From Cyanobacteria bacterium P01_D01_bin.156 (GTDB lineage: Bacteria; Cyanobacteriota; Cyanobacteriia; Phormidesmidales; Phormidesmidaceae): a DNA stretch of 25,757 nt. Within the stretch, counting starts at the first letter, position 1. The number at the start of each line of letters is the position of its first letter. The stretch spans positions 1 to 25,757 of the forward strand of contig JBCCQQ010000077.1 in the NCBI GenBank assembly GCA_039024555.1. The letters are read 5' to 3'. A program made the position numbers and the translations under genes. Positions 3,969-25,756 of this stretch are shown here, one piece after another. The notes beneath the pieces were generated by a model. It did not search any database and was not told the DNA's origin. It saw nothing but the letters and a program-made list of their open reading frames with translations.

Positions 3969-4001
3969 TATTAAGCGCTAAAAAATAAGAATCAGATTTT
4001 C

Positions 4002-4463
4002 ATGGAAAAGCGTGAGCTAATGCCGCTCCTCGTTGTTGAGGATAGTGATGAAGACTTTGAGGTCCTGCAAGTTTTTATGGAGGATCTGGAGATAGAGAAT
4101 CCTATTTATCGTTGTACTACTGGAGATAAGGCATTAGATTTTTTGTATCAGTTCCCTACTCAAGTATCTACTGATAAGCGGGGGCTGCCTTCTCTGATTC
4201 TGCTAGATCTCAACTTGCCTGGCACCGATGGCAAAGAGGTATTGGAGCGACTTAAGCAGGATCAGCGATTTTGTGATATACCCATTGTTATTTTCACCAC
4301 CAATGCCGATCCTGATGTGGTGAAGTTCTGCTATCGCAAAGGGGCCAATGGATATTTGATAAAGCCCGTTGAAACAGACCGCTTTGAGAAGGCAATCCAG
4401 GCACTTGTGCATTATTGGCTAGAAACGAATATTCCACCTGATTGGGTTGAGATTACGGGTTGA
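4002..4463 (+). CDS. Rcp1-type single-domain response regulator
   Basis: LLVVEDSDED, LILLDLNLPG, IVIFTT, GANGYLIKP, C-terminal YW; directly follows the phytochrome as in cph1-rcp1. Confidence 0.92.
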   Translation: MEKRELMPLLVVEDSDEDFEVLQVFMEDLEIENPIYRCTTGDKALDFLYQFPTQVSTDKRGLPSLILLDLNLPGTDGKEVLERLKQDQRFCDIPIVIFTTNADPDVVKFCYRKGANGYLIKPVETDRFEKAIQALVHYWLETNIPPDWVEITG

Positions 4464-4720
4464 TACTACGACACATTTCGGAAGTCCGGTGTGATGCTGG
4501 CTATGGAAATCTCGACGCAACAACTGGTTTATCAGGATAGTTCGACTATCTCAGGACAACAGCGTTCAAGTTGATTACAGCAAAATTAAGGTCTTGATAG
4601 AGTAGGCGAGACTCGTTGCTCGCCACAGGTTGGGGTGAGTTATTTTTAATATCTATTTATATTTGGTTGAAAAATAAGTTCAAATGTTAAATTTATGTAA
4701 TAAATGACAGCCTCATTACA

Positions 4721-6334
4721 ATGTCTGCATTTCATTCGCTCCTCATCATTGATGATTGTGCAGAAGATCGGGAAGTTTATCGCGATTATCTATCCGATGA
4801 CCCGCATAATACCTACGAGTTTTATGAAGCGGGCTTGGCAGCGGCTGGGTTAGAGTTATTTTTGCATCGATCATTTGACGCGGTATTGCTCGATTTCTAC
4901 ATGCCCGATATGACCGGGCTAGAGTTTTTGGGGCAGCTACAACAACGCCACCTTAAGGTGTGGTCTCCCATTATTATGTTGACTGGTCAGGGCAATGAGG
5001 ATCTGGCTGTTCAGGCAATGAAGCGAGGTGTACAGGACTATCTTGGTAAGCAGCAACTGCAGCCAGAAGTCTTGCAGCGCACGGTGAGAAGCGTTATTCA
5101 ACAATCTCATTTGCATGTCACGCTGAATAAAACCCGTGAACAACAGCGGGTGATTGCAACAACGTCACTACGGATTCGACAGTCGCTGGATCTCAGTCAG
5201 ATTTTGGATACTGCTGTAGCGGAAGTTCAGCAGCTTTTGGAATGTGACCATGTGGCGGTTTATCAATGTGGTTCAGAGCAGACACCAACAATTCAAGCTG
5301 AACTGGGAAGTCGTTGCGGGATGCCGCTGTTAAATCCGGAGGGACTGCTGACAAATTCAGCTTGTTCGCCTTCTGGCCTAGATAAATCTTGGCCAGAAGA
5401 TCACCGCGATCTGATTGCGCCAATTATTTTAAGCGATCGCACCTCTTCCCAAGGGTGGACATGGGGATATTTTGTCGCGCACCAATACTCTAAACAAACA
5501 CCCTGGCAGTCTGAAGAGCAAAGTTTACTGCAGAAGTTGTCGGTACAACTTGCGATCGCAATCCAACAAGCCGAACTTCTTTCCCAGACCCAGACCGCCT
5601 TGGAAAAAGCTCAGGAACTCAATCACCTCAAATCTCAAATTCTAGCCACCGTTTCCCATGAATACCGCTCTCCATTAGCGGCTATTCTGGGGGCAGCCTC
5701 TACCCTGGACCGTCACGGTGAGAGTCTAGAGGCATCAAGACAAGCTCGCTTTCTCCACATGATCCAGGACAAAGCCAGGCACATGACTCGGCTGGTAGAC
5801 AATATGCTTGTCATGCATCAGTGTGAGATTGACCAAGCCAAGTTTGTTCCATCGCCCATGAATTTATTGCAATTCCTTGCCAACCTGGTGGAAGAGCATA
5901 GAGAAACATTGGGTAATACTCACGAGCTGATTTTTCAAATGAGCGGTAAGACTGAAGGCTTTTGGGGTGACCCAGGCATACTACGCTTAATTTTTGATAA
6001 TCTCCTCTCAAACGCTATCAAGTTTTCACCTAATGCGAGGCGGGTCAATATTCACCTGCAGGGCACGCCAGAAGATGTATCCATTTCCATCAAAGATACT
6101 GGTATTGGCATTCCCAAGGCCGATCAGCCACATCTCTTTCAATCCTTTAGTCGCGCTAGTAATGCCAGGGATATTCAAGGCATTGGGCTAGGGTTGTCCA
6201 TTACCAAAGCATGTATAGAACTGCATGAAGGAGAGCTGCAGTTAGAGAGTCAAGAAGGTGAAGGCACAACCATGATGGTGTGTCTTCCAAAGCAGCCCAA
6301 AGCAGCCCAAAACATTTATAGGTCAGATTTGTAG
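4721..6334 (+). CDS. Hybrid sensor kinase, REC-GAF(shortened)-HisKA-HATPase
   Basis: IIDD, LLDFYMPDMTG, IMLTGQG (REC); IRQSLDL...LAIAIQQAEL (GAF); VSHEYRSPL, NLLSNAIKFS, DTGIGI, GIGLGL (kinase). Confidence 0.92.
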   Translation: MSAFHSLLIIDDCAEDREVYRDYLSDDPHNTYEFYEAGLAAAGLELFLHRSFDAVLLDFYMPDMTGLEFLGQLQQRHLKVWSPIIMLTGQGNEDLAVQAMKRGVQDYLGKQQLQPEVLQRTVRSVIQQSHLHVTLNKTREQQRVIATTSLRIRQSLDLSQILDTAVAEVQQLLECDHVAVYQCGSEQTPTIQAELGSRCGMPLLNPEGLLTNSACSPSGLDKSWPEDHRDLIAPIILSDRTSSQGWTWGYFVAHQYSKQTPWQSEEQSLLQKLSVQLAIAIQQAELLSQTQTALEKAQELNHLKSQILATVSHEYRSPLAAILGAASTLDRHGESLEASRQARFLHMIQDKARHMTRLVDNMLVMHQCEIDQAKFVPSPMNLLQFLANLVEEHRETLGNTHELIFQMSGKTEGFWGDPGILRLIFDNLLSNAIKFSPNARRVNIHLQGTPEDVSISIKDTGIGIPKADQPHLFQSFSRASNARDIQGIGLGLSITKACIELHEGELQLESQEGEGTTMMVCLPKQPKAAQNIYRSDL

Positions 6335-7361: not shown

Positions 7362-7907
7362 CTATGTTTCTAGGCTTTGTCTATTAGAGGAACTGGTCAA
7401 ATACTTAACGATCAGATAGACAATTACCATGGTTGGTAAAAGGCTTGCAGCGACTAAACGAAACGTCCCCAGCTGCCATCCGATGATTAGTCCCAGAGCT
7501 ATCGTATTGACGATAAGAACAGGGCTTCGTTCTTGCAATCCCAAAGGCTCTATGGGCTGCAAGCTACCAGGGTAGAGCTGAATCTTCGCCAGGGTATTGA
7601 ATAATAGCTGGCTAATGAGAACTGTTGCGGTGCCCATACCCAGCTTCAACCAAGCTAGGTAGAAGCCGATTAGTTCTAAGACAATTGTTATAAGCGTGAG
7701 CCAATAAAATCGTCTGACGCGCTTGTCTGCCAGGGTAACTTGGTGAATATTGTTGAGATCCACAAGCGCCATACGCCCTTGATCTACACAAAGCAACGCA
7801 AGGGCGATCGCAACTCCCAGACTAGCTAGCGGCTGATAATTCCAGGCCAATATACCAACAGCCGCAACACCAAACAGCCCTCCTAGAGTTACTAAAGGAG
7901 CTCGCAT
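7362..7907 (-). CDS. Hypothetical multi-pass membrane protein, overlapping the aroC stop
   Basis: About six hydrophobic segments; ATG at 7907 (MRAPLV) overlaps the aroC end; the ORF track extends it to 7937. Confidence 0.7.
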
Positions 7908-8980
7908 TGGCCATGGTGACGTAACAAATGATCGCACAGCACCAAGGCCATCATCGCTTCCACCATCGGTACCGCCCGAGGCAACACGCAGGGGTCATGG
8001 CGACCCCGACCAGACAGTGTTGTTTCATTCCCCTGCTGATCCACGGTTTTTTGTTCTTTCAAAATTGTTGCTGTGGGTTTAAATGCCACCCGGATAACAA
8101 TATTCTCACCGTTGGAAATGCCCCCCTGGGTACCGCCGGAACGGTTAGTACGGGTGCGAATAGTGCCATCGGCATCGGTGTAAAACTCGTCGTTATGCTG
8201 ACTGCCAGTGAGCAGGGTTCCGGCAAAACCAGAGCCTAGCTCAAAGCCCTTACTGGCGGGCAGAGACATCATGCCTTTTGCCAAATCAGCTTCCAGCTTG
8301 TCAAATACGGGGGCGCCCAAACCCTTGGGTACTTCACGGGCTATGCATTCAACCACACCGCCAATGGAGTCGCCATCTTTGCGTACCTGATCGATGCGGG
8401 CAATCATTTCCTCAGCAAAGTCTGGATTGGGACAGCGCACAATGTTACTTTCCACCTGCTCCAAGGTGACGCTGTTGGGGTCGATGGGGGCTTCCATATC
8501 CTGAATACGCTTGACGTAACCAACGATTTCTACCCCCGCTACCTGCTGCAGGATTTTCTTTGCGATCGCACCTGCTGCCACTCGACCAATGGTTTCCCGC
8601 GCCGACGACCGGCCTCCCCCCTGGTAATTGCGAATGCCATATTTAGCATCGTAGGTGGCATCTGCATGGGACGGACGATACTTAGTCGCCATCTCGCCGT
8701 AGTCTTGGGGGCGCTGATCTTTATTGCGTACCAGTACGGTAATCGGAGTTCCTAACGTTTTGCCCTGAAACACACCGGAAACAATCTCACAGGTATCGGT
8801 TTCCTTACGCGGTGTAGTGATTTTGCTCTGACCTGGGCGACGGCGATCTAAATCCACCTGAATCTCATCAGCGGAGATCTCTAACTGAGGCGGACAGCCG
8901 TCAATAACAACACCCACACCACCTCCGTGGGACTCGCCAAAGGTGGTGATCCGAAATAGATGGCCGAAGGTATTGCCCAT
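7892..8980 (-). CDS. aroC: Chorismate synthase
   Basis: [36 protein letters not shown] motifs; start taken at MGNTFG (ATG 8980) rather than the track's 9013. Confidence 0.98.
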
Positions 8981-9059
8981 AGGTTTCTGGTAGAAATTGT
9001 GAAAACCTTTCAATCCTACCGTGGATATGGCCTAACAGGGACTTACCCTGCAAAGGAAG

Positions 9060-10588: not shown

Positions 10589-11383
10589 ATGGCACAAGCA
10601 GGACAGATTACTTGGTTGGATGTCAATAGCTGGCAGTTTGAACTGGCTGGACGGTGCATTTTGGTTGATCCATGGTTAGTGGGAGATCTCGTTTTTGGCA
10701 GTAACCTAGGCTGGTTAATTCGCGGTGTGCGGCCCCAGCCGGTGACCATTCCGCCAGTCATTGATTTACTCTTGCTGTCCCAAGGTTTGGCCGACCACGC
10801 CCATCCTCAGACCTTGGAAATGTTAGATAACTCTATTCCGGTGGTAGCTTCTGTGGCCGGGGCCAAGGTGGCAACGGAAAAGGGCTTTACCCAGGTAACA
10901 GCCCTCAACCCCGGTGAGAGCTACTCCCTGGATGATGATGTGATGATTGAAGCATTGCCGGGGGCTCCTGTCGGTCCCTTGGCAACGGAAAATGCCTATA
11001 TCCTGACGGTAAAAAGCACAGGGTTGCGAATTTACTATGAACCCCACGGTTACCCGGATGCAAGCCTAGGGCAACGCCCCCCGGTAGATGTGGCCATTAC
11101 TCCTTTGGTGAGCCTGATGCTGCCAGTATTGGGGCCAGTGATTCGGGGGGGAGTGGGGGCGTTGGAGCTCGCCCAAACGTCAAAACCCCAATGGTTATTG
11201 CCCACTGCCGATGGTGGGGATGTGACCTATGAAGGGGTAGTGGCGAAGCTATTGACGGCAAAGGGGGGTGTGGAGTCGGTGCGATCGCAGCTAGCTGAGG
11301 CCAACCTAGCAACGGAAATCAAAGCCCTACGCCCCATGGAATCTCTCATTCTGGACTTAACTCCCCAGGCCGCTCTAGTCTAG
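10589..11383 (+). CDS. MBL-fold metallo-hydrolase (cyanobacterial/plant type)
   Basis: ILVDPWLVG, SQGLADHAH, YYEPHG motifs; GGAGG/GAGG upstream. Confidence 0.85.
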   Translation: MAQAGQITWLDVNSWQFELAGRCILVDPWLVGDLVFGSNLGWLIRGVRPQPVTIPPVIDLLLLSQGLADHAHPQTLEMLDNSIPVVASVAGAKVATEKGFTQVTALNPGESYSLDDDVMIEALPGAPVGPLATENAYILTVKSTGLRIYYEPHGYPDASLGQRPPVDVAITPLVSLMLPVLGPVIRGGVGALELAQTSKPQWLLPTADGGDVTYEGVVAKLLTAKGGVESVRSQLAEANLATEIKALRPMESLILDLTPQAALV

Positions 11384-11397
11384 CTACAGCATCTTCT

Positions 11398-11850
11398 ATG
11401 CCCCCAATTATCAAGTTCAAAAAACTCTCCCCGGCAGCCATTATCCCCAGCTATACCCATCCGGGGGATGCTGGGGCTGATTTAACAGCTGTTGAACACC
11501 ACCACCTGGCACCGCTGCAGCGGATAGCCATACCGACAGGACTAGCCGTTGAAATTCCCCAGGGATACGAGCTGCAGGTACGCCCCAAAAGCAGCCTAGC
11601 GCTGCACCATGGAATTACTTTGCTCAATGCACCGGGGACCGTGGATGCAGGCTATCGGGGAGAGATAAAGGTAATTTTGATCAACCTGGGACAGGATGTA
11701 TTTGAAATTAGTCCAGGCCAACGGATTGCCCAGATTGTCATTGCTCCTGTGATTCAAGCAGAGTTTACCGTGGTAGACACCTTGAGTGAATCCCAACGGG
11801 GAGCAGGCGGTTTTGGGTCCACTGGAAAGACCTACAGCAAGACCGAATAG
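11398..11850 (+). CDS. dut: Trimeric dUTP diphosphatase
   Basis: AGADL (motif I), RPKSSLA (variant motif II), GTVDAGYRGE (III), RIAQI (IV), RGAGGFGSTG (V). Confidence 0.95.
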   Translation: MPPIIKFKKLSPAAIIPSYTHPGDAGADLTAVEHHHLAPLQRIAIPTGLAVEIPQGYELQVRPKSSLALHHGITLLNAPGTVDAGYRGEIKVILINLGQDVFEISPGQRIAQIVIAPVIQAEFTVVDTLSESQRGAGGFGSTGKTYSKTE

Positions 11851-11950
11851 AAATTTGAGACTGGAAATCTGGGCTACGGTTAAGTTCGGAATTTGGAAGT
11901 CAGAATGAGAAGACGTCTTTAAAATCTTCTAATATCGCTGAATTCAGCCC

Positions 11951-12460
11951 CTAGAAATCGTCCAACACATCTGGATCAATGTCTTCATCATCCAGAATAT
12001 CCGCTATGGAAGCTGGGTTCGCATCAATCGTACGGGGCGGGGGAGTTACCTTTTTGATAACCGTATCGGCTGATAAAGGACCGTGGCCATTCGTCTCTTT
12101 ACCAGTGCTGGGCGTATTGCCTCCAAGAGATTCACTCAGCTTGGGACCGTAGGCTTCCCCAGATAAGAAATGTCGACGAATCTGAAAGATTCTAAACTCT
12201 AATTCGTCAATGGCCCCTCGGGCCAGCACCTGAGCTTCTTCTTTAGAAACGTCATCCTCATAGGCCCAGGGGAGATAGTAGGCTTTGAGGGCACGCACCA
12301 CAGACTCGCGCATATTGACCATTTTGTTATTACGCAGGTGCTCAACAATACGTCCCTCTACGGTATCTGGGTCAGAGCTAATGCTAAAGGACACCCGCTT
12401 TCTGGCTGGAGAGGAATCCTTAGGGGGGTCTTTTTTAGAGGTACTTTTCTTTTTAGCCAC
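11951..12460 (-). CDS. ParR-like partner of the actin-like ATPase (169 aa)
   Basis: GTG start overlaps the ATPase stop by 8 nt; basic N-terminus, strand RVSFSIS followed by helices (RHH-like by eye), low-complexity linker, acidic tail DILDDEDIDPDVLDDF. Confidence 0.65.
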   Translation of the reverse strand: MAKKKSTSKKDPPKDSSPARKRVSFSISSDPDTVEGRIVEHLRNNKMVNMRESVVRALKAYYLPWAYEDDVSKEEAQVLARGAIDELEFRIFQIRRHFLSGEAYGPKLSESLGGNTPSTGKETNGHGPLSADTVIKKVTPPPRTIDANPASIADILDDEDIDPDVLDDF

Positions 12461-13568
12461 GATGCTGCCCCGCAGTAAGTTTTTGGAACTTTAGTGCCAG
12501 CCATTTGGCTCCACCGTAGCAGTCGCAGAACCGCAGCTGATCGATATCAGTATCCAGCTCTAGGTTTGCAGCCACTTCATCCTGCAAATCTTCGAGCCAG
12601 TTTACGGTACAAAACGTGGAGCGTTCTTCAAAGTATTCCTCCAGTTCGTCCCGCAGTTGGGTAGCCGTTCCTCCACTGATGAGGACTTCATAGTTGGGAA
12701 CACTAACCGCCGCTAGCCATTCGTCCAAACGATATTTGACCACCTCCCAATAGTAGGCGGTGGCTTTTTCTTTCCGTTCTGCTAGTGAGTAGCCTTTCTT
12801 AGGACGATTGGGAAACACCACCCGTGATGCATTGTTGACCAGAGCATCATAGAGAAAAGGATCGTCGGAATTGCAGGGGAGATCTTGGGCCACTGCTTTT
12901 AATAGCTGCTGATAACCTAGACGTTCGGTACTGCTGGGCTCCCCCTGGGGAGGCCGACCGCCGTTAAATAGTAAAAAGCTCAGATCACGATGGCCAAACA
13001 TTAGCACCACAAAGGTTTTTTGGGAGCGTTCCTTTTGTTGCGATCGCTGTACCTTACGCCACTGCACCAACCCCGCTGCTTCCGGGAGCACCTTGACTTG
13101 ATTAAAGTCTAAAAAGATATCCTGCCCGCGGTAGGTAAACATCTTGTGTCCCAGGATCTCGCTGGTTAGCGCCTTATAATCCGTCAGATATTCATTGAAG
13201 GGTAGAGCTATACCCACATCTAACGTAATCTGCTCCAACTTATGCTGGTGGGCAAACTCACCAATGACCCCCAAGGCTCGAATATGGGCCAAGGCACTTT
13301 TAGGCAAACTGCTGGTAGCCTTATTGGGACGTCCCTGGGCATCAATACCAAGGGCATAGGCCGGGTTCTCTGGATCTAGCTGCAAATAGCTGACAGACTC
13401 TAGCCCAGATCCTAGCTGCTCGCCCTGGGCCTCAATAATTGTCAGCTCAGACGGAGGCATATCCGCCACCAACGGCGGACACTGATAGGCATAAAATCGC
13501 TCTCCATCATTGAGAACGGCCTTTGTACCGGAGCTACCTAAATCGATAAAGCATTGATATTTAGCCAT
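12453..13568 (-). CDS. ParM/StbA-family actin-like ATPase
   Basis: FIDLGSSGTK (phosphate 1), ALPFNEY, VLPEAAG (connect 1), LMFGHRD (phosphate 2, cyanobacterial type), ISGGTA (adenosine), RFCDCYG (connect 2); GGA upstream of ATG. Confidence 0.88.
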   Translation of the reverse strand: MAKYQCFIDLGSSGTKAVLNDGERFYAYQCPPLVADMPPSELTIIEAQGEQLGSGLESVSYLQLDPENPAYALGIDAQGRPNKATSSLPKSALAHIRALGVIGEFAHQHKLEQITLDVGIALPFNEYLTDYKALTSEILGHKMFTYRGQDIFLDFNQVKVLPEAAGLVQWRKVQRSQQKERSQKTFVVLMFGHRDLSFLLFNGGRPPQGEPSSTERLGYQQLLKAVAQDLPCNSDDPFLYDALVNNASRVVFPNRPKKGYSLAERKEKATAYYWEVVKYRLDEWLAAVSVPNYEVLISGGTATQLRDELEEYFEERSTFCTVNWLEDLQDEVAANLELDTDIDQLRFCDCYGGAKWLALKFQKLTAGQHRG

Positions 13569-13595
13569 GGAGATATGGACTGGAGTTTGTTAAGT

Positions 13596-13609
13596 AGTAC
13601 ATTAGTACG
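13596..13609. promoter_or_regulatory. Candidate cyanobacterial LexA box upstream of the parM-like gene
   Basis: AGTAC-ATT-AGTACG matches the recalled Anabaena consensus RGTAC-NNN-DGTWCB; lies 28-41 nt upstream of the ATG at 13568. Confidence 0.5.
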
Positions 13610-13772
13610 ATTTTCCAGTGAGCTTATTCTAATTCAGTGAGCGTTGACAATCTATCGCAGACGATACGTTTCGTAGATTGCCCAGCTACTACATATGGGG
13701 TCTGTATCTATATATACGTACCGTTAACGTCCAGGAAAACCGAGAAATATACTAGCAAAAGTTTAGGCCAAC

Positions 13773-13786
13773 CACTACATGTAGTG
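13773..13786. promoter_or_regulatory. 14-bp perfect palindrome in the divergent promoter region (candidate operator)
   Basis: CACTACATGTAGTG is its own reverse complement; the partial copy ACTACAT is also at 13688-13694. Confidence 0.35.
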
Positions 13787-13887
13787 TCTTAAACGGGCTA
13801 ACACCATAGCCATCATTGACAGAAGGGAAAGGCATAACTGCTTGTCTCAATGTAAGAACTACGTTTGGCCTAAAAGAGATGATTGTA

Positions 13888-14058
13888 ATGAATCAGAAAA
13901 AATTTCAGACGAAGACATCTAACAGTTTGTGGACAACCATTTCCAGCAACAATACAGAGACTATTGAAGGTGGCGGTGGCTGCGAATGGGTCACCTCAAG
14001 GCGATGGTGTTCAATGACAAAAAGAGTAATGCATATAACCTGGCTACATACTTGGTAG
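13888..14058 (+). CDS. Double-glycine-leader precursor peptide (56 aa), candidate RiPP/bacteriocin
   Basis: MNQKKFQTKTSNSLWTTISSNNTETIEGG|GGCEWVTSRRWCSMTKRVMHITWLHTW; Ile at -4 and -12 from the GG; AAGAG 9 nt before ATG 13888; strong hairpin after the stop. Confidence 0.65.
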   Translation: MNQKKFQTKTSNSLWTTISSNNTETIEGGGGCEWVTSRRWCSMTKRVMHITWLHTW

Positions 14059-14064
14059 TCTTTG

Positions 14065-14112
14065 AAGCTCTGATCAATCTGGAATTTAGCCTATTCCAGA
14101 TTGATCAGGCTT
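14065..14112 (+). terminator. Stem-loop directly after the precursor peptide gene
   Basis: CTGATCAATCTGGAAT (14070-14085) pairs perfectly with ATTCCAGATTGATCAG (14093-14108); 7-nt loop; extends via AAGC/GCTT. Confidence 0.7.
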
Positions 14113-14258
14113 TAAGTAAACCAAGTTTGCGATTAATGGCTCAACCTTAAGTCAAGGATTTGGATCATGGACTTTGCTATATCCTCCCCACTGACAGGGT
14201 GTTATTTCGCCTTGTATAAGTAAAGCTGCATCTACTACCTTTTGGGAAAGTAAAGTCT

Positions 14259-15050
14259 ATGGTTTTTGCTTCAATTACCCCCAGCTCCATAACCACAATT
14301 CAAGGTGAACCTGCTGTGCCTCTAGAGGCTATGCCCCTTAGCTGGCAGCATATTGCCACTGGGGATTGGATGAGTGAGCCCAAGGTGTACGTTGCTATGG
14401 CTCAGGTATTCCTTGCAAAACATCAGCAGGGAAATGTATTGTTTTGCGAGCGTCCGGCAGCGGCTCATCTGAAGGCCGCCTACTGTGAGGGAAATGGCCA
14501 ACTGGCCTATGAAGCTGTTGAACACTATGGGCAAGCTTTTTTGCCCGAGAGTTATCCAAACTTAAATGAGATTCGACAGCAGGTTGCTGCAACCACAGAA
14601 CAAACAGCCGAACGCTTAGCACTGGTAGATACTGTTATCGATTTGTTCGATGAGCTCGGTTATGACGTGCCTGCCACATTTTATTGGACATTCTTACATC
14701 CCCTACAGCGAGACAATGTGTTTGAAGTCCGTTCGTTTCGCTTTAGCGAACAGGATTTAGGAGTTGCTCGTCAGTTTGATGCAATTTTGCATGGAGGCTA
14801 TGTAACCATGCTGCGTCGATTGATTGACAGTATTTCTAGTCGCCATGGTTACTTTATCGAGCATGGCTGTGGCTGTGAAAATCACCTAGCAAAGCTAAAA
14901 CCTTGTGATTCAGCCTTTGACTATCAATTGCCAGCTGCCACCCGACGGAAAACCTTACGGGCCTTTTTCTGGAGCATTATGGAAGAGTATCTACTGTTTG
15001 AGCAACGGGCTGCTACCCGACTGGTCTACGCAGACAGTATGGATGGATAG
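14259..15050 (+). CDS. Hypothetical protein (263 aa) with EHGCGCENH motif
   Basis: Long ORF with protein-like composition, bounded by hairpins on both sides; no family recognised. Confidence 0.8.
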   Translation: MVFASITPSSITTIQGEPAVPLEAMPLSWQHIATGDWMSEPKVYVAMAQVFLAKHQQGNVLFCERPAAAHLKAAYCEGNGQLAYEAVEHYGQAFLPESYPNLNEIRQQVAATTEQTAERLALVDTVIDLFDELGYDVPATFYWTFLHPLQRDNVFEVRSFRFSEQDLGVARQFDAILHGGYVTMLRRLIDSISSRHGYFIEHGCGCENHLAKLKPCDSAFDYQLPAATRRKTLRAFFWSIMEEYLLFEQRAATRLVYADSMDG

Positions 15051-15075
15051 CAACTACCATTCATAGGAAAATATT

Positions 15076-15125
15076 AGCAATCAGGAGACTTTCTGAAAGT
15101 ACTTTCAGAAAGTCTCCTGATTGCT
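15076..15125. repeat. 50-bp perfect loopless palindrome between convergent genes (probable bidirectional terminator)
   Basis: AGCAATCAGGAGACTTTCTGAAAGT|ACTTTCAGAAAGTCTCCTGATTGCT. Confidence 0.85.
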
Positions 15126-15148
15126 TCAGATTCTGTTCTCTCTTCTAT

Positions 15149-15532
15149 TTACTTTGCCTTAGTCGATGCCAATATGGGCTTTATTGGGTTGACATCACCT
15201 GCATTACAGTAAACAGTCCAGAGACTATCATTACGATGGAGAAGTGAGCCCTGCTCAGTTATACAAATGGCTACGGAAGCATCTTCATTGGGGCCACGAA
15301 ACAGAGTGGCAGAGTGATGCTGGCAACCACCTAGCTCGTACTGATTGCAGGTAATTTCTAGCTCACAGGCAATAAACGTTTTCTCAAACGTGGCACAGTA
15401 ATCTCGAATATTATCTAGACTTTTTCGAACAAATTCTCGACGTTTTGATATGGGAAGCTTCTGGGCAATGACTAATGTTTCTTGTAATAGACGCCGTATG
15501 GTTTGTTTAACGTGATACATGGTCTCCACCAC
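15149..15532 (-). CDS. Hypothetical protein (about 123-127 aa), Cys-containing
   Basis: Globular-looking ORF with LFRGPNEDASVAICITEQGSLLHRN; alternative start ATG 15520. Confidence 0.7.
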   Translation of the reverse strand: MVETMYHVKQTIRRLLQETLVIAQKLPISKRREFVRKSLDNIRDYCATFEKTFIACELEITCNQYELGGCQHHSATLFRGPNEDASVAICITEQGSLLHRNDSLWTVYCNAGDVNPIKPILASTKAK

Positions 15533-15990
15533 CTAAAGAACTGCGGTGATGACCCTGATTTGTGCCGATGGTGTCTGACTACTTTTATAGCTGTGTATCC
15601 CTAATATCTTATCGAATAGAAGCATACTACTCGAAGACTGGAGAAACTCTCTTCATCTTGTATGGCTTTTGGCCTGTAAAAATAGAAGCAAAAACTGTTG
15701 CGAGAATGGGTACAGCAGCACTCAATCATCTACAAAAACTATCTAACCAAACTCTTATTAGCGTTAAGACAGATAGGGGGGAACAAAATTTAGTTTATAA
15801 AGTTTGTATGAACGATGTTTAAATTTCATTAAACCTCCTAAACCATGCACACTATAACAATTGTTTTTCGGGGTGGCAATGGCGGTGGATGGGTAACGTG
15901 TCGTGCTTGTTGATACAACAGATTGTCAAGTGTTCAACAAGCTATAGCACCCCAGCTGTAAGAGATTGCTAGCTAAGGTATGGAGTAAAA

Positions 15991-16485
15991 CTACTCAGAT
16001 CGTTGGGATGGTGGTAGCTGACCAATGAATTCAGTTAATTGTGTGCGAATGGATTGATGGGAATAAACGACATTTGGGTGGGCGTCCGTATTGGGTTTCT
16101 GAAAGTGGGGGCGTTCTCCGTTCATGTGGCCTAGCTCAATGGCAACCTGGCGTGCAAATGCGTACAAAATTTCCGGATTTGCCAGCATATCGAAAACAAT
16201 GACTCGTAGTGCCTCCAATGGAGTATCTAAATACTTGCCGATGCGTACATCATCTCTGATCCATTGTTTAAGGGAGGGTTTAAGGGCACCGTCCGGATCC
16301 TGCAAATATTGATCAATCCAGCCGTTAATAGCGGCTTTTGCCCGCAAGGGGCGAGGCACAGCTGCCTGGGAGCCTTTAAGAAATGAGCCGCCCTCACGGC
16401 CAATGGCTTCACTTAAACTAAACTTGCGCCCTAACTGAATTTCGCGTTGAAGATTGGATGGCAGCGGACTATCGGATGGAGGCAT
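15991..16485 (-). CDS. Conserved cyanobacterial hypothetical protein (164 aa)
   Basis: RKFSLSEAIGREGGSFLKG, D.DGAL, ERPHFQ.P....HP...Y.H.S motifs resemble a recalled cyanobacterial family. Confidence 0.75.
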   Translation of the reverse strand: MPPSDSPLPSNLQREIQLGRKFSLSEAIGREGGSFLKGSQAAVPRPLRAKAAINGWIDQYLQDPDGALKPSLKQWIRDDVRIGKYLDTPLEALRVIVFDMLANPEILYAFARQVAIELGHMNGERPHFQKPNTDAHPNVVYSHQSIRTQLTEFIGQLPPSQRSE

Positions 16486-16595
16486 TAGCTATAGGAAATG
16501 TCTAAATTTAAGATACCAAAGCTGCGTTAGTATCGCGGCAAGGCTATTGTGCAAATGCGAATGGCCGTTGCTAGTGAGCCAGCGCACCCAAGGTT

Positions 16596-18719
16596 ATGGC
16601 CGGTGATGACATCAACTTTAGTCCCAAGACCTTTATGCCGGATTTGCCTCCTTCGGAGGGGGTACATCGAGATCATTTTATGGTGTGTGGTCTGGGCAGT
16701 CTCGGTCAGCAGATTATCGTTAATCTGACTAAGTTCAGTTTTGATTCCTTTGAGGTCTGTATTTCGGGTATCGACCGGCAGCCCGTAGAGGAATGGGAGG
16801 CTGAGGACCTACCGACCATGCTTCACCAACCGCCAATTGTGGGGGACTGTCGTCGTGATTATGTTCTGCAACAGGCAGGGGTAGAGCACTGCCGTGCGGT
16901 GTTGATTGTCACCAGCGATGAAAGTACCAATGTGCAAACTGCGATCGCAGTACGTCGGTTAAATCCCCATGCCCACATTGTGGTGAGATCGTCGCGCCAA
17001 GGGTTAAATCGGTTACTCAGCCGTCAGCTGGAGCGGTTTGTCGCCCTGGATGCCACTGAACTACCGGCCATGACCTTTGCCCTGGCAGGACTAGAGGATA
17101 ATACCCTCAGTGTTTTTAATATCGATACATTTCAATTTCGGGTCGTAGAGCGACAGATTACAGCCCAAGATCCACAGTATTGCAATACGCCGGTGCATCG
17201 CTTACATCGGCAAAGCATGCGACTCCTGAACCTGCACCCCGCTAATAACCCCCACCAACCCATCGGCTGGGCCACAACGGCATCGTCCATGTTCCATCGT
17301 TGGCAGCCCCATGTGCGAGTACATGCGGGAGACCAGGTAGCCTATGTGGAGGTGCAAAGCCTCACTCCCAGCCAGATTGCCAACATTCCAAAGCGCCAAC
17401 GGCCCTGGTGGGAAAAACTGCGTCAGGGTATTGGCGATCTGTTAGATGGAGAATGGCGACGACGGCTGTGGAACTTTTGGCAAAGTCCGGATCAGCATTC
17501 CTTACGACGAATGGTTGCGATCGCCCTCACTACCGCCTTAGTGCTTTGGATACTCGGTACCCTATTACTGCTATTTAACATTCCTGACATTACTCTCACC
17601 AAATCTATTGTTTTGGGGGTTGTTCTAATTTTGGGAGGGTACGGTGATGTCTTTGGAGGGTTTGAAGAAAGTGGGGCCCAGGGCTGGGTACTGATTGCCT
17701 GTTTGATGATTACGATCACCAGTTTGCTAATGGTGATTGGTGTGTTGGGGCTATTGGCCGATCAGTTGCTGAGCTCACGGTTTGAATTTTTACAGCGACG
17801 ACCTAAGGTGCCCACCGAAGACCATGTGATTGTGTTGGGTTTGGGGCGTGTGGGAAAACGCGTCATCCGCATTTTGCAAGATCTTCGACAGCCCCTCGTG
17901 GCCATTACCCATCATGTGGACAATCCTGCCCTGCGTCACCAAATTCCATTATTGGAAGGTCCGATGCTGCAGCAGTTAGAGGCAGCTAATCTGGCCACTG
18001 CCCGTAGTGTGATTGCGGTAACCGACGATCCGGTACTCAATTTGGAGATTGCCCTGATTGCCACTGAAGCTTCAGAACACAAAGCTCGTCCCTTTACTCC
18101 CGTCATTCGTACCCTCAGCCAGCTGTTCAGCGATAACATTCAGGCGTTTTTACCCCAGGCTCGTTCCTTCTCTGCCTATGCCTTATCAGCCGAAGCCTTT
18201 GCCGGTGCTGCATTTGGCGAAAATATTCTAGGGCTGTTCCGGCTCAATCAACAAACTATTCTGGTGACGGAGTACACCATTGAATATGGCGATAGCCTCA
18301 ATGGTAAACCTCTGGCGGAGATTGCCTATGGCTATGGGGTAGTGCCAATTTTGTTGCGCCAGATCCAGCCCAATGGACAGTACCACAACTATCCTATGCC
18401 CTCTGATGATATGCGGGTGAGAGTGGGAGACAACCTGTATGTGCTTTCTTCTATTAATGGATTGCGCCGCATTGAACGGGGAGAAATGACCTCACCCCGT
18501 CAGTGGTCTCTTGAAGTGGAACGGCCCCTAAATCCGAACATGGTCTCCGAAGCCAGCAACATTTTAGCCAGGTTATCCAGCCTGCAGCTCAATGACTGCC
18601 ACCGACTGATGAACACCCTACCCAACACAGTTCAGTTAGCTCTTTATGATTACCAGGCCTACCGTTTGATGCAGGAGCTTAAGCGATATGTACCTATCCG
18701 CCTGTCTCCTCTAAGATAA
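16596..18719 (+). CDS. Potassium channel-type protein with two TrkA-N/RCK modules flanking a 2-TM pore
   Basis: VCGLGSLG and VLGLGRVG Rossmann motifs, TM-GYGD-TM core, TrkA-C-like segments. Confidence 0.85.
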   Translation: MAGDDINFSPKTFMPDLPPSEGVHRDHFMVCGLGSLGQQIIVNLTKFSFDSFEVCISGIDRQPVEEWEAEDLPTMLHQPPIVGDCRRDYVLQQAGVEHCRAVLIVTSDESTNVQTAIAVRRLNPHAHIVVRSSRQGLNRLLSRQLERFVALDATELPAMTFALAGLEDNTLSVFNIDTFQFRVVERQITAQDPQYCNTPVHRLHRQSMRLLNLHPANNPHQPIGWATTASSMFHRWQPHVRVHAGDQVAYVEVQSLTPSQIANIPKRQRPWWEKLRQGIGDLLDGEWRRRLWNFWQSPDQHSLRRMVAIALTTALVLWILGTLLLLFNIPDITLTKSIVLGVVLILGGYGDVFGGFEESGAQGWVLIACLMITITSLLMVIGVLGLLADQLLSSRFEFLQRRPKVPTEDHVIVLGLGRVGKRVIRILQDLRQPLVAITHHVDNPALRHQIPLLEGPMLQQLEAANLATARSVIAVTDDPVLNLEIALIATEASEHKARPFTPVIRTLSQLFSDNIQAFLPQARSFSAYALSAEAFAGAAFGENILGLFRLNQQTILVTEYTIEYGDSLNGKPLAEIAYGYGVVPILLRQIQPNGQYHNYPMPSDDMRVRVGDNLYVLSSINGLRRIERGEMTSPRQWSLEVERPLNPNMVSEASNILARLSSLQLNDCHRLMNTLPNTVQLALYDYQAYRLMQELKRYVPIRLSPLR

Positions 18720-19154: not shown

Positions 19155-21341
19155 ATGTCTGGTCGGGTCAACTCGCCAACGGTTCTACAGATGGAGGCGG
19201 TGGAATGTGGTGCCGCTGCCTTGAGCATGGTGTTGGGGTACTACGGACGCTATGTGCCGTTGGCGGAATTGCGCCATGCCTGTGGTGTTTCCCGAGATGG
19301 GGTGACGGCAGCTAACGTACTAAAGGCGGCCCGAACCTACGGTTTAGATGCCAAGGGGTTTAAGAAGAGTTTGACCAGTCTGGAAGAGCTAAAACCCCCA
19401 TTCATTGTGTTTTGGCATTTTAATCACTTTTTGGTGGTGGATGGATTTACGACTAAGCACGTATACCTCAATGACCCAGCTACCGGACCTCGCAAAGTTA
19501 CCCGACAAGAATTTGATGATGGTTACACGGGGATTGCCCTGACATTTTCACCGACGGATGCCTTTGAAAAAGGGGGGCGAAAACCTAATGTTACGGGCTC
19601 TCTGGTGCGACGGCTGGGGGGATCTATCGGAGCTCTACTCTACTGCACCCTGGCGGGATTTTTGCTGGTATTGCCCACCATCGCTCTACCGGCATTTAGC
19701 CGCATCTACATTGACAATATTTTGCTGGCTAAGCGTTTGGACTGGTTGCCCTATGTGCTGTTGGGCATTGCCTTAATTGTCATTGTGCAGGGCCTATTGA
19801 CCATGCTACAGCTGCGCTTTTTGCGAGCGCTACGAATTAAGCTAGCAGTGGGGATGGCTAGTCGATTTGTATGGCATGTGCTGCAGCTGCCCGTGGGGTT
19901 CTATGCCCAGCGGTTTGCCGGAGAGATTACTAGCCGCATTGCCTTGAACGACAGTGTTGCCAGTATTTTGTCGGGGCGATTGATCACCACAGTGATTAGT
20001 TCAGTAATGGTGGTGTTTTATGCGATCGCAATGCTCCAGTACGACATTCTCCTCACCGTGATTGTGATCGCGTTTGCCCTAATTAATGTCGGGGTGCTGC
20101 AGTGGGTTTCCCGCCAGCGAAAAGACGCTAACCTGCGATTGGTGCAGGAGTACGGCAAGGCATCGGGTATTGCCGTAGCCGGACTCCAAGGCATGGAAAC
20201 CCTTAAGGCTGGGGGCATCGAATCGGACTTTTTTGCCCGCTGGGCGGGCTACCATACCAAAGCCGTCAATGCACAGCAAAATTTAGGGTTGGCGAATCGA
20301 GTCATTGGTCTGTTGCCATCGTTGTTGTCCACACTTTCGGCTCTATCCCTTTTGATCATTGGTGGTTTACGTATTATTAACGGCAGTCTCACCGTCGGTA
20401 TGCTGGTGGCATTTCAGCTGCTGATGCAAAGCTTCCAGGGACCGGTCAATTCTCTCGTGAATTTTGCAGGTACCCTACAGACATTACAGGGAAACCTTGA
20501 CCGTCTGGATGATGTCTTAGAAAACGAAACTGATGTAGCCTTCTGTTCCCATTGCAAACATAATGTTTCTGAAGAAGAAGAAGCTGCTAAGAATCATCGT
20601 CTCTCAGGGCTAATGGAGATTCGTGAGCTTTCCTTTGGCTACAGTCCTCTCGATCGTCCCCTTATTGAAAACTTTAACCTCACCATTAAACCAGGACAGC
20701 GAATTGCGCTGGTGGGTGGCAGCGGCTCGGGCAAATCTACTCTGGCTAAAGTGATTGCCGGTCTCTATCAGCCCCGCAGCGGTGACATCTGTTTTGATGG
20801 CCGTCCACGGCAAGAAATTTCCCAAGCGACATTAACCAACTCTATTGCCATGGTAGAACAGGATATTCTCCTGTTTGCTGGGAGCGTGCGAGATAATCTC
20901 ACCCTTTGGGATGACACCGTACCTGACGAAGACCTGCAGCAAGCGTGTCAAGATGCCGCCATTGAAGACGTGATTTTGGCCATGCCCTACGGCTACGATG
21001 CCAAACTATTGGAGGGAGGACAAAACCTCAGCGGTGGCCAGCGTCAGCGCCTAGAAATTGCCCGTGCCCTAGTGAACAATCCATCGATTTTGATCATGGA
21101 CGAAGCCACTAGCGCCCTGGATACGGAAACCGAGAAAATAATCGACCAGAACCTGCGACGACGGGGGTGCACCTGTATTATCGTGGCCCACCGATTGAGC
21201 ACCATTCGAGATGCTGATCAAATCATTGTATTAGAGCATGGCAAAGTAGTGCAGCGAGGCACCCACGATGATCTTTGGCAACAGGAAGGCCACTACGGAG
21301 ACTTAATTCGTAGTTCAGGAGCAGCATTAGCCGTGGCCTAG
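19155..21341 (+). CDS. NHLP/NHLM bacteriocin export ABC transporter, C39 peptidase/permease/ATPase
   Basis: PTVLQMEAVECGAA (catalytic Cys18), FNHFLVV, LNDPA; GGSGSGKST, LSGGQRQR, IMDEATSALD; GGAGGA RBS at 19141-19146. Confidence 0.95.
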   Translation: MSGRVNSPTVLQMEAVECGAAALSMVLGYYGRYVPLAELRHACGVSRDGVTAANVLKAARTYGLDAKGFKKSLTSLEELKPPFIVFWHFNHFLVVDGFTTKHVYLNDPATGPRKVTRQEFDDGYTGIALTFSPTDAFEKGGRKPNVTGSLVRRLGGSIGALLYCTLAGFLLVLPTIALPAFSRIYIDNILLAKRLDWLPYVLLGIALIVIVQGLLTMLQLRFLRALRIKLAVGMASRFVWHVLQLPVGFYAQRFAGEITSRIALNDSVASILSGRLITTVISSVMVVFYAIAMLQYDILLTVIVIAFALINVGVLQWVSRQRKDANLRLVQEYGKASGIAVAGLQGMETLKAGGIESDFFARWAGYHTKAVNAQQNLGLANRVIGLLPSLLSTLSALSLLIIGGLRIINGSLTVGMLVAFQLLMQSFQGPVNSLVNFAGTLQTLQGNLDRLDDVLENETDVAFCSHCKHNVSEEEEAAKNHRLSGLMEIRELSFGYSPLDRPLIENFNLTIKPGQRIALVGGSGSGKSTLAKVIAGLYQPRSGDICFDGRPRQEISQATLTNSIAMVEQDILLFAGSVRDNLTLWDDTVPDEDLQQACQDAAIEDVILAMPYGYDAKLLEGGQNLSGGQRQRLEIARALVNNPSILIMDEATSALDTETEKIIDQNLRRRGCTCIIVAHRLSTIRDADQIIVLEHGKVVQRGTHDDLWQQEGHYGDLIRSSGAALAVA

Positions 21342-21413
21342 CTGAAACAGCTTCTTTAAACGGTTGTCTTAGAAAACTCTTTAAGTAGAACTCTTTTTTG
21401 ATCCGGTAATGTC

Positions 21414-24314: not shown

Positions 24315-24406
24315 ATTCAAACCTTTTTTCTTCACTATTTATATAGTTTTCAATGTGTCTGTCAATGATAAGGCGATTGCACAAAAATAAAATTCCAAGC
24401 AGGATT

Positions 24407-24545
24407 TTATTAAGCAACGTCCTCCCCTTAACAAGGGGAGGTGCCTTAGGCGGAGGGGTCTTCGGCCATTTGCGCTAGTTTTCCAGACCCCTCCCTGACG
24501 GTTCCCCTTGCCAAGGGGAACCAGGTATCGCTAAGCCTTATTAAG
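24407..24545. repeat. Multi-hairpin dispersed repeat (REP/MITE-like) flanked by TTATTAAG direct repeats
   Basis: CCTCCCCTT-AAC-AAGGGGAGG (24421-24441), GGAGGGGTCT/AGACCCCTCC (24452-24461, 24485-24494), GGTTCCCCTT-GCC-AAGGGGAACC (24500-24522); TTATTAAG at 24407-24414 and 24538-24545. Confidence 0.7.
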
Positions 24546-24586
24546 GTGTCTTATTTTCACGCACTTACCTTACCTAGCTATTTCCT

Positions 24587-25756
24587 CTAGATAAAGGCCA
24601 CTTCAGGTATGAGGACATTTAGATGATCGTGGTCATGGTCATGACCAAAATGATCATGACCATCGGCCACCAGATTACTGACGCCCACATTGGCAGTACT
24701 ACCAACACTATTGGCAGTACTGCCAACGCTATTAGAAGCACCGATAGATGAGGCAGGTGGAATGTAAAGATCGGCAGCCTCAAAATCAACTGTATAGCCA
24801 ATATCAGCAAGCGAGGCAATGGTCACTTCACTAATGGGATTTACACTGTCGGAGTCTAGAAAACCTGTCATTAATTCGTTCCCGAATACCGATTCTCTCC
24901 AATGACTATCCCGTGTGCCGGGTGATCCTGTATTTGCGAGGGGAACTGACTCCTCAGTAACGCCAAAGATGTCATTGTATGCGGTGGTTGTCTGTTCACC
25001 AGTAAACCTTGGGTCGTCTGATCCTGCATCCGTTAGCAGATCAAATAAGCCATCTCCCCAAAGAGTGCCAATTCCTAAAACATGTCCCATTTCATGCAGG
25101 ATCACATTTTCCAACTGACCATTCTCTTCTAAATTATCTACATCAGCTACATCGAAGGACATTACCCCTGTAACGGGTAAGAAAGAATCGCTTCGGATGA
25201 GGGTAGGACCCGCTTGCCCTAAAATGCCGCTTACTCCATCAATCTCAGGTGCACTGGCCTCGATTACTATATCGTCAACCACGCCAAGTTCGTCATTTAC
25301 AAAGACATCGGGAATATCTTCAATGATGATCTCTTCCCAACGGTTAGCAGCGCTGGTAAACAGCGCCTGTTGGGATTCGGTAAAACTATCATCTGTAAAA
25401 ACAATATCTATATTAAATGTAGAGATTGGCGGTGGTGCATTGACCGTAAAGGTTACCGTCGTAACTGCTGAATCCTCTGTCCCGTCATTAGCAACATAGG
25501 TAAAACTATCTGTGCCGCTAAAATCCTCATCAGGGATGTATGCTAAGAAGCCACTAGGATCTAGCAGTAGAGTTCCATTGCTAACATCATCCACTAGCGT
25601 GACAGTAAGCGCATCGCCATCGGCATCACTATCATTACTCAGAATGCCAGGTGCCTTGATTGAAAAAGTAGTGCCAGTATCTAGGGTAAAGCTGTCATCG
25701 TTTGCCACTGGAGCTGTATTAACAGGTGGCTCGTTGACAGTGAAGGTTACCGTAGC
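24587..25756 (-). CDS. 3' part of a large secreted/surface protein: cadherin-like Ig (Big_9-type) repeat(s) plus leishmanolysin-like Zn metalloprotease; 5'-truncated by the window edge
   Basis: Frame is open to the window end (ATVTFTVNEPPVNTAPVANDDSF); GILSNDSDADGD...DSFTY.ANDG repeat; HEMGHVLGIG, SHWRES, NELMT. Confidence 0.88.
   Translation of the reverse strand, partial: ATVTFTVNEPPVNTAPVANDDSFTLDTGTTFSIKAPGILSNDSDADGDALTVTLVDDVSNGTLLLDPSGFLAYIPDEDFSGTDSFTYVANDGTEDSAVTTVTFTVNAPPPISTFNIDIVFTDDSFTESQQALFTSAANRWEEIIIEDIPDVFVNDELGVVDDIVIEASAPEIDGVSGILGQAGPTLIRSDSFLPVTGVMSFDVADVDNLEENGQLENVILHEMGHVLGIGTLWGDGLFDLLTDAGSDDPRFTGEQTTTAYNDIFGVTEESVPLANTGSPGTRDSHWRESVFGNELMTGFLDSDSVNPISEVTIASLADIGYTVDFEAADLYIPPASSIGASNSVGSTANSVGSTANVGVSNLVADGHDHFGHDHDHDHLNVLIPEVAFI

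Follow-up and report, generated by a model that had tools for sequence, protein, structure and literature searches.

Actin-like ATPases encoded beside a small adaptor protein are known from both plasmids and chromosomes. Such a pair is analyzed here in a stretch of 25,757 nucleotides (the window) from Cyanobacteria bacterium P01_D01_bin.156, where the genes for a ParM-type actin-like ATPase (ALP; 371 amino acids (aa), ATG start; 12453..13568) and a ParR/CorR-like adaptor, or partner (169 aa, GTG start; 11951..12460), lie on the minus strand. The window is the entire contig C77 (25.8 kb) of a 6.62-Mb, 149-contig assembly. In plasmid type II ParMRC systems (R1, pSK41) and the ParM/StbA systems of cyanobacterial plasmids such as pLBX, pAQ4 and pCC7120delta, the ATPase gene precedes an overlapping or adjacent gene for the small adaptor. 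Type II ParMRC serves low-copy plasmids; its parC centromere consists of several direct repeats adjoining the operon, and ParR is a DNA-binding adaptor with a ribbon-helix-helix fold. The same gene order is found in the window, and the coordinates of the open reading frames (ORFs) confirm the 8-nt overlap that an earlier note on this DNA had read from the sequence.

Chromosomal pairs have also been described, in publications that are cited here from parts of their text. The cParMR systems (Dh-cParM1, Cb-cParM), found in Firmicutes and others, combine a chromosomal ParM-fold ATPase with an adjacent adaptor and are conserved among congeners; a function beyond plasmid segregation has been proposed for them, and their role is given as unknown (PMC12270681). 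In filamentous cyanobacteria, CorMR of Anabaena sp. PCC 7120 (10.1101/2025.06.27.661541) and FcmB/FcmC of Nostoc punctiforme (PMC12645912) are two names for one system. The CorMR clade is described as restricted to Nostocales and Oscillatoriales and is defined by a chromosomal 'green' clade and an N-terminal disordered region of CorM; CorR is defined by an N-terminal amphipathic helix in its first ~10 residues, a C-terminal CorM-binding helix and the loss of DNA binding. Two further cyanobacterial ParMR clades, mostly plasmid-borne and one of unknown function, are distinguished in the same preprint (10.1101/2025.06.27.661541).

The window locus falls within the definition of cParMR in the portions of PMC12270681 used here, and Dh-cParM1 (8x1i) is among the fold matches of its ATPase, but its lineage is unrelated and belongs to a different phylum. 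Like CorMR, it lies on the chromosome of filamentous cyanobacteria (the genus here is Leptothoe/Adonisia/Leptolyngbya PCC 7375, whose members are filamentous, marine and thin), encodes an actin-like ATPase followed by an adaptor, and has no parC array. Unlike CorMR, it coexists with a true CorMR in one genome, and unlike plasmid ParMRC, it is chromosomal, syntenic and vertically inherited across the genus and has no multi-copy iteron array. The pair is very probably a second, independently fixed ParMR cassette of plasmid type, distinct from CorMR, vertically kept and under selection.

Distinction from CorMR

Three ALP/adaptor pairs are encoded in the genome of P01_D01_bin.156, one in the window (C77) and the others on contigs C76 and C12. 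The C76 pair (L003:1213-2253 and 2320-2715) scores 621.6 bits as CorM/FcmB (cut-off 300) and 104.9 bits as CorR/FcmC (cut-off 90), whereas the window ALP reaches 36.8 bits against FcmB (NF052678; cut-off 300) and the window adaptor gave no match to FcmC (NF052682) at E <= 0.1. True FcmB occurs in 18 of the 20 other genomes of the genus, among them the three without the window cassette; with the bacterium's own genome counted, 12 of 12 high-quality genus genomes have it. The window locus is not CorMR, and the name CorMR/FcmBC should not be applied to it. The C76 CorM, from a Leptolyngbya-like genus, is without the ~40-aa N-terminal disordered region of Nostocales CorM; the N-terminus of its CorR (MAAKSIRKSISF) has a hydrophobic moment of 0.57, like that of Nostocales CorR.

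The window ALP is a ParM/actin-like protein, with a score above the cut-off of Pfam ALP_N (PF17989), if barely (27.8 against 26.3 bits), and a ParM fold. It also matches the PHROG partition protein phrog_691 (E 7e-14). Its AlphaFold model, made from a 31-row alignment (pLDDT 86.4, pTM 0.84), has as its top Foldseek match the CorM filament 9rmi_A (E 2.1e-18, TM 0.67/0.74); further matches are pSK41 ParM, Alp7A, clostridial and Bacillus ParMs, Ta0583 and R1 ParM, and the E values of CorM, pSK41 ParM, Alp7A and R1 ParM run from 2e-18 to 1e-11. CorM is the best sequence match in the PDB as well, at an E value of only 4e-7, and the two proteins are only about 17-20% identical.

The active site also separates the two. 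The canonical phosphate-2 motif is DxG. The phosphate-1 (DLGSSGTK), connect-1 (PEAAG) and adenosine (SGGTA) motifs of the window ALP are conserved, and D9, G11, K16, E163, G166, G192, H193, G299 and G300 are invariant over 31 aligned ALPs. The earlier note had credited the protein with all nucleotide-binding motifs, which holds for these three, but phosphate 2 reads LMFGHRD, without the canonical Asp. This form, xMxGHR[DN], is present in 6 of 6 plasmid ALPs and in all of the ALPs examined that adjoin relaxase genes, whereas CorM keeps VDIGHQT. Likewise, a C-terminal extension of ~35 aa (RFCDCYGGAKWLALKF) is common to the 6 plasmid ALPs and the relaxase-adjacent ones and absent from CorM. At its other end (MAKYQCFIDLGSSGTK) the window ALP begins directly at phosphate 1; the N-terminal disordered region of CorM/FcmB was sought there and is absent, as it also is from the genus's own true CorM.

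It could still be that the pair forms a membrane-bound cortical cytoskeleton that controls cell shape in the manner of CorMR, with an adaptor that anchors filaments to the membrane and not to DNA. No structure or PDB sequence matches the ATPase better than CorM, the adaptor shares the overall architecture and LDDF tail of CorR, and the cassette is chromosomal and strongly conserved in filamentous cyanobacteria. The polybasic N-terminus of the adaptor could in principle bind anionic lipids, and in a related genus (g58, below) the cassette adjoins a LysM-M23 peptidoglycan peptidase. However, a true CorMR is already present in the genome, the FcmB and FcmC models do not recognize the pair, the active-site motif and C-terminal extension are of plasmid type, and conserved, genome-unique palindromic and tandem DNA sites lie at the operon. 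The CorR-type amphipathic membrane helix was looked for in the adaptor and rejected: in its place is a basic, Pro-rich arm containing three prolines, and the hydrophobic moment of the first 11 residues is 0.13, compared with 0.58 in Nostocales CorR (on a simple Eisenberg scale, not from Amphipaseek). A CorMR-like role, which the earlier note had offered as one of its options, thus appears quite unlikely, and its other option, a case independent of CorMR, is supported.

Relationship to plasmid- and relaxase-linked ParMs

The closest sequence similarity of the window ATPase is to the ParMs of cyanobacterial plasmids. A tblastn search against 72,556 plasmids returned homologues on 59 cyanobacterial plasmids, all at less than 60% identity and with a best E value of 4e-24, much lower than the 4e-7 for CorM. 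In 4 of the 6 plasmid loci that were opened, the ParM/StbA gene is divergent from an adjacent relaxase gene; the window pair has no such neighbor.

Trees were inferred with FastTree (LG+gamma, 79 sequences) and IQ-TREE (LG+G4, -fast, with SH-aLRT, 41 sequences), the second set being one from which 38 near-duplicate or redundant rows were dropped and to which 10 new rows were added. Both trees are midpoint-rooted and have no outgroup, as no non-cyanobacterial ParM is included. In both, CorM stands on its own long stem. The window clade and its 49-70% identical relatives form a superclade (SH-aLRT 97), within which the window genus pairs with genus g58 (99.6), and the sister group (96.7) contains a set of chromosomal copies (99.1) nested among relaxase-adjacent ones. 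FastTree recovers the same grouping of the window clade and g58 against the sister group with a support of 1.0. A phylogeny of the ATPase had been named in the earlier note as a check, with nesting among plasmid ParMs to count against domestication; the protein indeed stands apart from CorM, but it groups with plasmid- and relaxase-linked ParMs, and that objection therefore applies in part.

TrwC relaxases adjoin many of these relatives (L034-38, L044-46, L048, L062, L114 and L115). A TrwC relaxase of ~1150 aa lies immediately upstream and divergent, a response regulator and a histidine kinase follow downstream, and an integrase, restriction-modification or Argonaute-like gene is found nearby. 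At L044-L046 (three copies in one genome, G051) and L048 (G053), the relaxase precedes a divergent series of ALP, partner, response regulator and histidine kinase genes; a long GC-rich hairpin in the relaxase/ALP intergenic region has an oriT-like look, and MmeI and HsdM restriction-modification genes, an integrase and a Piwi-domain protein are close by. Other relatives are chromosomal, lack a relaxase and occupy genus-specific sites: beside LysM-M23 and HtrA genes in g58, beside AzlC/AraC in g102, and on a 2.07-Mb contig in G052. The g58 cassette, whose ATPase is 69% identical to that of the window, was found in 4 of 4 genomes sampled. It is convergent with the LysM-M23 peptidoglycan peptidase gene (L107:9531-10427, L109:7077-8027), with HtrA close. 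The window also encodes an M23 peptidase, three genes away from the pair, but it is only 35% identical to that of g58 over part of its length, and the resemblance may be coincidence. In a class-wide sample, members of the superclade (E <= 1e-60) were detected in 19 of 251 genomes, from 5 of the listed families; in the genomes searched, the superclade is restricted to Leptolyngbya-like cyanobacteria.

More distant relaxase-linked pairs occur as well. The C12 pair of the bacterium's own genome (L002:1207-2343 and 2343-2858) has an ALP ~21-24% identical to the window ATPase and is divergent from a TrwC-type relaxase, itself 54% identical to a g7 relaxase; it is probably carried by a plasmid or an integrative and conjugative element (ICE). 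A tier of loci at 33-35% identity, from family f1 (L049-L058, L060, L064-L068), combines a TrwC-like relaxase of ~890 aa, an ALP and a partner ending in ..LNPFINDLT. The relaxase is present in 15 of the 16 loci fetched, on contigs of ~9 kb to 8 Mb, most above 0.4 Mb and including a single-contig 5.58-Mb genome. This tier is a widespread chromosomal relaxase-ParMR module.

Inheritance and selection within the genus

Fourteen orthologous loci were obtained from other species, with ATPases 90-93% identical to that of the window. In 13 of them the gene order of the window (ALP-partner-dut-MBL-M23-aroC) is retained, and these syntenic loci contain no relaxase, integrase or transposase; the remaining locus, L015, has no shared neighbor within 8 kb. 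The carrier scaffolds reach 8.16 Mb (Leptolyngbya sp. PCC 7375), 7.69 Mb (Adonisia turfae) and 3.94 Mb, and named carriers include Leptolyngbya sp. PCC 7375 and Adonisia turfae CCMR0081. Synteny with dut in relatives, another check named in the earlier note, was thus observed in 13 of the 14 loci fetched, and together with these scaffolds it bears out the view that the pair is chromosome-resident. As the window is a whole 25.8-kb contig, one of 149, its replicon is not shown directly, and the contig could in principle derive from a plasmid or ICE, with an ordinary plasmid ParMR on it. However, it carries housekeeping-type genes (aroC, dut, phytochrome and TrkA-domain protein genes), its gene order recurs on the three large scaffolds of relatives, and its 11 HIP1 sites occur at a density typical of the genome. 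A plasmid or ICE origin of the contig is accordingly very hard to credit.

The cassette is not universal. In an even sample of the order, an orthologue is present in 13 of 19 other genomes of the genus. In G146 the partner's end lies at a contig edge. Three genomes have empty sites, G067, G082 and G074 (98, 97 and 99% complete), where dut lies directly beside orf164/TrkA or orf263; G129 and G145 (75 and 70% complete) were counted neither as carriers nor as empty. No recognizable scar of the cassette was seen at the empty-site junctions. In a midpoint-rooted tree of flanking genes, the genomes with empty sites occupy two separate positions among the carriers, which suggests at least two losses; because the junctions carry no scar, the choice between loss and gain depends on the locus tree and on synonymous divergence (dS). 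Patchy presence in close relatives, which the earlier note would have held against domestication, is thus seen in part, in the form of three empty sites.

Both genes are intact in 15 of 15 loci. By the Nei-Gojobori method over all pairs, the ratio of nonsynonymous to synonymous divergence (dN/dS) is 0.025 for the ATPase, 0.028 for aroC, 0.051 for TrkA, 0.082 for the partner and 0.084 for dut. The dS of the ALP is 1.6, compared with 1.3-2.1 in the flanks, values at which dS is saturating. Four-fold sites diverge by 0.528 in the ATPase and by 0.561 in the flanks, with the same closest species pairs and no anomalously similar pair. As most pairs are close to saturation, the Spearman correlation between the two is weak (0.16, p 0.18). 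The cassette is vertically inherited and both of its genes are under purifying selection, the ATPase being as strongly constrained as chorismate synthase. Such conservation suggests that the cassette may have a non-plasmid role. Among the public runs listed as holding the stretch, there is no RNA run, only the probable source metagenome.

An alternative is that the pair is an inert or selfish remnant of the partition module of an integrated plasmid or ICE, without a host function. The relatives closest to it adjoin relaxases and occur in multiple copies, three of them in G051; three genomes of the genus cleanly lack it; and the region upstream of it varies between species. However, intact genes with this degree of constraint at saturating dS, and divergence like that of the flanks, fit vertical inheritance under strong purifying selection and not a recent insertion or a decaying relic. 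In addition, the window and the 13 syntenic loci are free of relaxase, integrase and transposase genes, and the base composition of the pair has ameliorated to that of its surroundings, its GC and GC3 being those of the neighboring genes. An origin as a functionless remnant is thus improbable.

Upstream sites and the adaptor

The region upstream of the ALP gene contains conserved sites that are compatible with an adaptor that binds DNA. The pair lacks a tandem array: a TRF scan of 11000-16600 and a repeat search found none near it, as the earlier note had stated for iterons, and the only such elements are a two-copy 8-bp tandem and a 14-bp palindrome. In having palindromic or tandem sites at its promoter, the locus nonetheless resembles plasmid ParMRC. 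The two tandem 8-bp boxes (GTACTAATGTACTA; 13595..13608, minus strand) start 40 nt before the ATG and are a candidate operator or adaptor-binding site. Their pattern, GTACTAANGTACTA, is present in 15 of 15 genus loci, starting 40 nt (36-41) upstream of the ATG. Such tandem 8-bp boxes may be comparable with the sites that ribbon-helix-helix (RHH) repressors such as MetJ bind. The boxes fall within a conserved promoter-proximal block (13569..13671, minus strand) that, in an alignment of the 15 loci, comprises AAACGTATCG..CGATA..TTGTCA..TAGAAT-like elements, with AAACGTAT in 13 of 15; a strict sigma-70 scan found no site on the gene strand. Further upstream, about 205-218 nt before the ATG, the palindrome CACTACATGTAGTG (13773..13786) is a candidate second binding site. 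Its pattern, CRCTAYATRTAGYG, lies 204-229 nt upstream; 9 of the 15 genus loci have it unchanged, and 11 have it if one mismatch is tolerated. Neither the boxes nor the palindrome recurs elsewhere in the 6.6-Mb genome, and the ~100 nt before the start codon are kept across 15 species despite a difference of ~53% at four-fold sites. In other subclades, different palindromes lie just upstream, with no motif in common between subclades.

These sites also bear on the possibility that the cassette is a domesticated partition pair directed against related incoming plasmids or ICEs, which would act by partition incompatibility with elements carrying cognate sites. Related relaxase-linked cassettes circulate in the same cyanobacterial family, and the genome's own relaxase-linked pair, on C12, is of a different type, with an ALP ~21-24% identical. 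However, the mobile relatives that were aligned do not show the window clade's cis motifs in their upstream regions, and the ORF scan of the window, which did not extend to the PADLOC library, showed no adjacent defence genes. An anti-plasmid role must be considered a minor possibility.

The adaptor (11951..12460, minus strand) begins with a basic Lys/Pro arm. A putative ribbon strand (RKRVSFSIS) comes next, then two short helices and a long one, and a disordered linker leads to the C-terminal IDPDVLDDF tail. The first 22 residues have a net charge of +7, three prolines and no hydrophobic residues. In the monomer model, helices span residues 34-44, 50-62 and 73-99, residues 100-150 are disordered and short C-terminal helices follow; RKRVSFSIS followed by the first two helices is an RHH-compatible pattern. 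Partners throughout the superclade have one layout, with an R-[KE]-R-[IV]-S-x-[RS] strand pattern, an RA[LT]KA[YF]Y..PW helix and an ELEFRIFQIR helix, then a variable disordered linker and a C-terminal [IV][DN]PxxLDDF. CorR, which has a ribbon-type N-terminal domain, long helix, disordered linker and ..DP..LDDF tail, aligns over the same layout and ends in ..DPV[IL]SRL..LDDF. P163, L166, D168 and F169 are invariant in window-type partners and CorR, and five invariant positions beyond the LDDF are common to both; hhalign of the two families gave an E value of 2.6e-4 and a probability of 42% over 85 columns. The basic arm and Arg-rich strand, on the other hand, are present in the adaptors of mobile relatives and not in CorR. 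Fis, the sole PDB profile match of the adaptor (E 0.014), was treated as noise.

A complex of the ALP with partner residues 125-169 was also predicted, with a score of 0.36 where the best control had 0.01. The runs concur in at least 48% of contacts, and the pLDDT of the partner is at least 48. For calibration, 116 of 157 solved complexes passed the same mark, as did 2 of 215 mismatched pairs, but with scores of 0.60 or under the passes comprised just 18 of the 157 together with both of those mismatches, so the result gives weak support to an interaction. It may also reflect family likeness, because complexes of R1 ParM with a ParR peptide and of CorM with CorR have already been solved.

Conserved, unique cis sites together with a basic arm and an Arg-rich strand that are shared with mobile relatives and not with CorR would fit a DNA-binding adaptor. 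On this combined reading, which is probable though by no means secure, the locus is a CorMR-independent, chromosomally fixed ParMR cassette with a DNA-binding adaptor. The adaptor dimer would still bind DNA, by way of its ribbon strand and basic arm, and its targets would be the tandem boxes and the palindrome, each unique in the genome, that lie shortly before its own operon. These sites would then serve as an operator and perhaps also as a one-site centromere. The C-terminal ..DPxxLDDF tail of the adaptor would dock on the ATPase and thereby couple filaments to the upstream site, and the possible cargo of such filaments includes copies of the polyploid chromosome. This specific DNA-anchored mechanism is proposed tentatively from sequence features, and we place slightly less than even confidence in it.

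Several observations weigh against the DNA-anchored model or parts of it. No parC-like array is present, only two boxes and one palindrome, and 4 of 15 loci lack the palindrome even if one mismatch is tolerated. The upstream regions of g58, the closest clade outside the genus, lack the motifs of the window clade. The adaptor has no match in Pfam, NCBIfam or PHROG and no significant match in a PDB profile search. Its monomer model is weak (pLDDT 60.7) and contains no strand, and because of this the RHH assignment depends on a weak profile match and the residue pattern. Despite an architecture like that of the adaptor, CorR is reported not to bind DNA (10.1101/2025.06.27.661541, in the parts used here), and architecture by itself is thus no proof of DNA binding by the adaptor. 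The three clean absences indicate that the cassette is dispensable. Finally, a derivation from mobile ancestors is suggested solely by the nesting in the sister clade, because the trees are unrooted and only midpoint-rooted.

On a more far-reaching interpretation, cyanobacteria that already use CorMR would have domesticated a plasmid ParMR a second time, independently. The cassette would be a host-beneficial, DNA-anchored actin machine whose unique upstream site serves as a chromosomal centromere, distributing copies of the polyploid chromosome or organizing the nucleoid, and it would represent a natural intermediate between plasmid ParMRC and CorMR. In this full form the interpretation seems rather unlikely.

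Genomic context of the cassette

Comparison of the empty sites in G067, G082 and G074 with their junctions suggests that the approximate unit of presence or absence among species of the genus is 11851..14116, which comprises the partner, the ALP and the upstream region. The adjoining dut (11398-11850) and nearby aroC (7892-9013) were identified in a profile scan of the window ORFs; both genes, and a HIP1 site at 13040, are where the earlier note had placed them. The note had also seen no rep, relaxase, integrase or transposase gene in the window, and a family scan of 22 window ORFs accordingly gave no matches to any of these, with relaxase tblastn against the window returning only noise (E >= 0.5).

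Upstream of the cassette, five small ORFs (80, 263, 127, 86 and 164 aa) occupy 13816-16485, some with a low GC3 (0.32-0.46), and none has a Pfam, NCBIfam or PHROG match. The presence or absence of orf263 and orf127 among species is independent of the ALP cassette, and the region upstream of it is thus variable. A 12-bit NCBIfam match of orf127 to a Shiga-toxin subunit (E 0.069; cut-off 720 bits) was rejected as noise. A perfect 16-nt inverted repeat with a 7-nt loop (CTGATCAATCTGGAAT / ATTCCAGATTGATCAG; 14070-14108) lies between the ALP upstream region and orf263. Farther away, 19155-25708 is probably a cluster for the export of a peptide or bacteriocin; it encodes two ABC exporters, one of the C39-peptidase type and the other of 966 aa, and a leishmanolysin-like M8 peptidase that carries bacterial Ig and cadherin-like domains. 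At the other end of the contig, 1713-6334 contains a cluster of genes for a phytochrome histidine kinase, a response regulator and a hybrid GAF histidine kinase.

Implications for ParMR repurposing

Chromosomal ParMRs (PMC12270681) and CorMR/FcmBC in filamentous cyanobacteria (PMC12645912) were already known from the parts of those papers used here. Set against the main text of the CorMR preprint, what is new is an independent chromosomal fixation that coexists in one genome with CorMR and with a relaxase-linked pair; that main text makes no mention of Leptolyngbya, Leptothoe or relaxase (10.1101/2025.06.27.661541). Among the literature matches listed, there was no ParM paper on Leptothoe, Adonisia or Leptolyngbya PCC 7375. 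Compared with the cParMR systems, the window cassette adds documented mobile relatives, empty sites, a measured strength of selection and a coexisting second repurposed ParMR. Both the CorMR preprint and the cParM paper (PMC12270681), in the portions cited, raise the question of whether ParMR has been repurposed more than once.

If the cassette is an ordinary leftover, the value of the finding is mainly annotational, in that such loci are not to be called CorMR/FcmBC. The genome of P01_D01_bin.156 presents three stages side by side: the relaxase-linked C12 pair, the fixed and constrained C77 pair with an adaptor that looks DNA-binding, and a true CorMR. The lineage of the C77 pair itself includes both mobile and fixed members, at 50-70% identity to one another. 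Leptolyngbya sp. PCC 7375, one of the carriers, is presumably available in culture, and if so, the steps from plasmid partition to host function would be directly testable.

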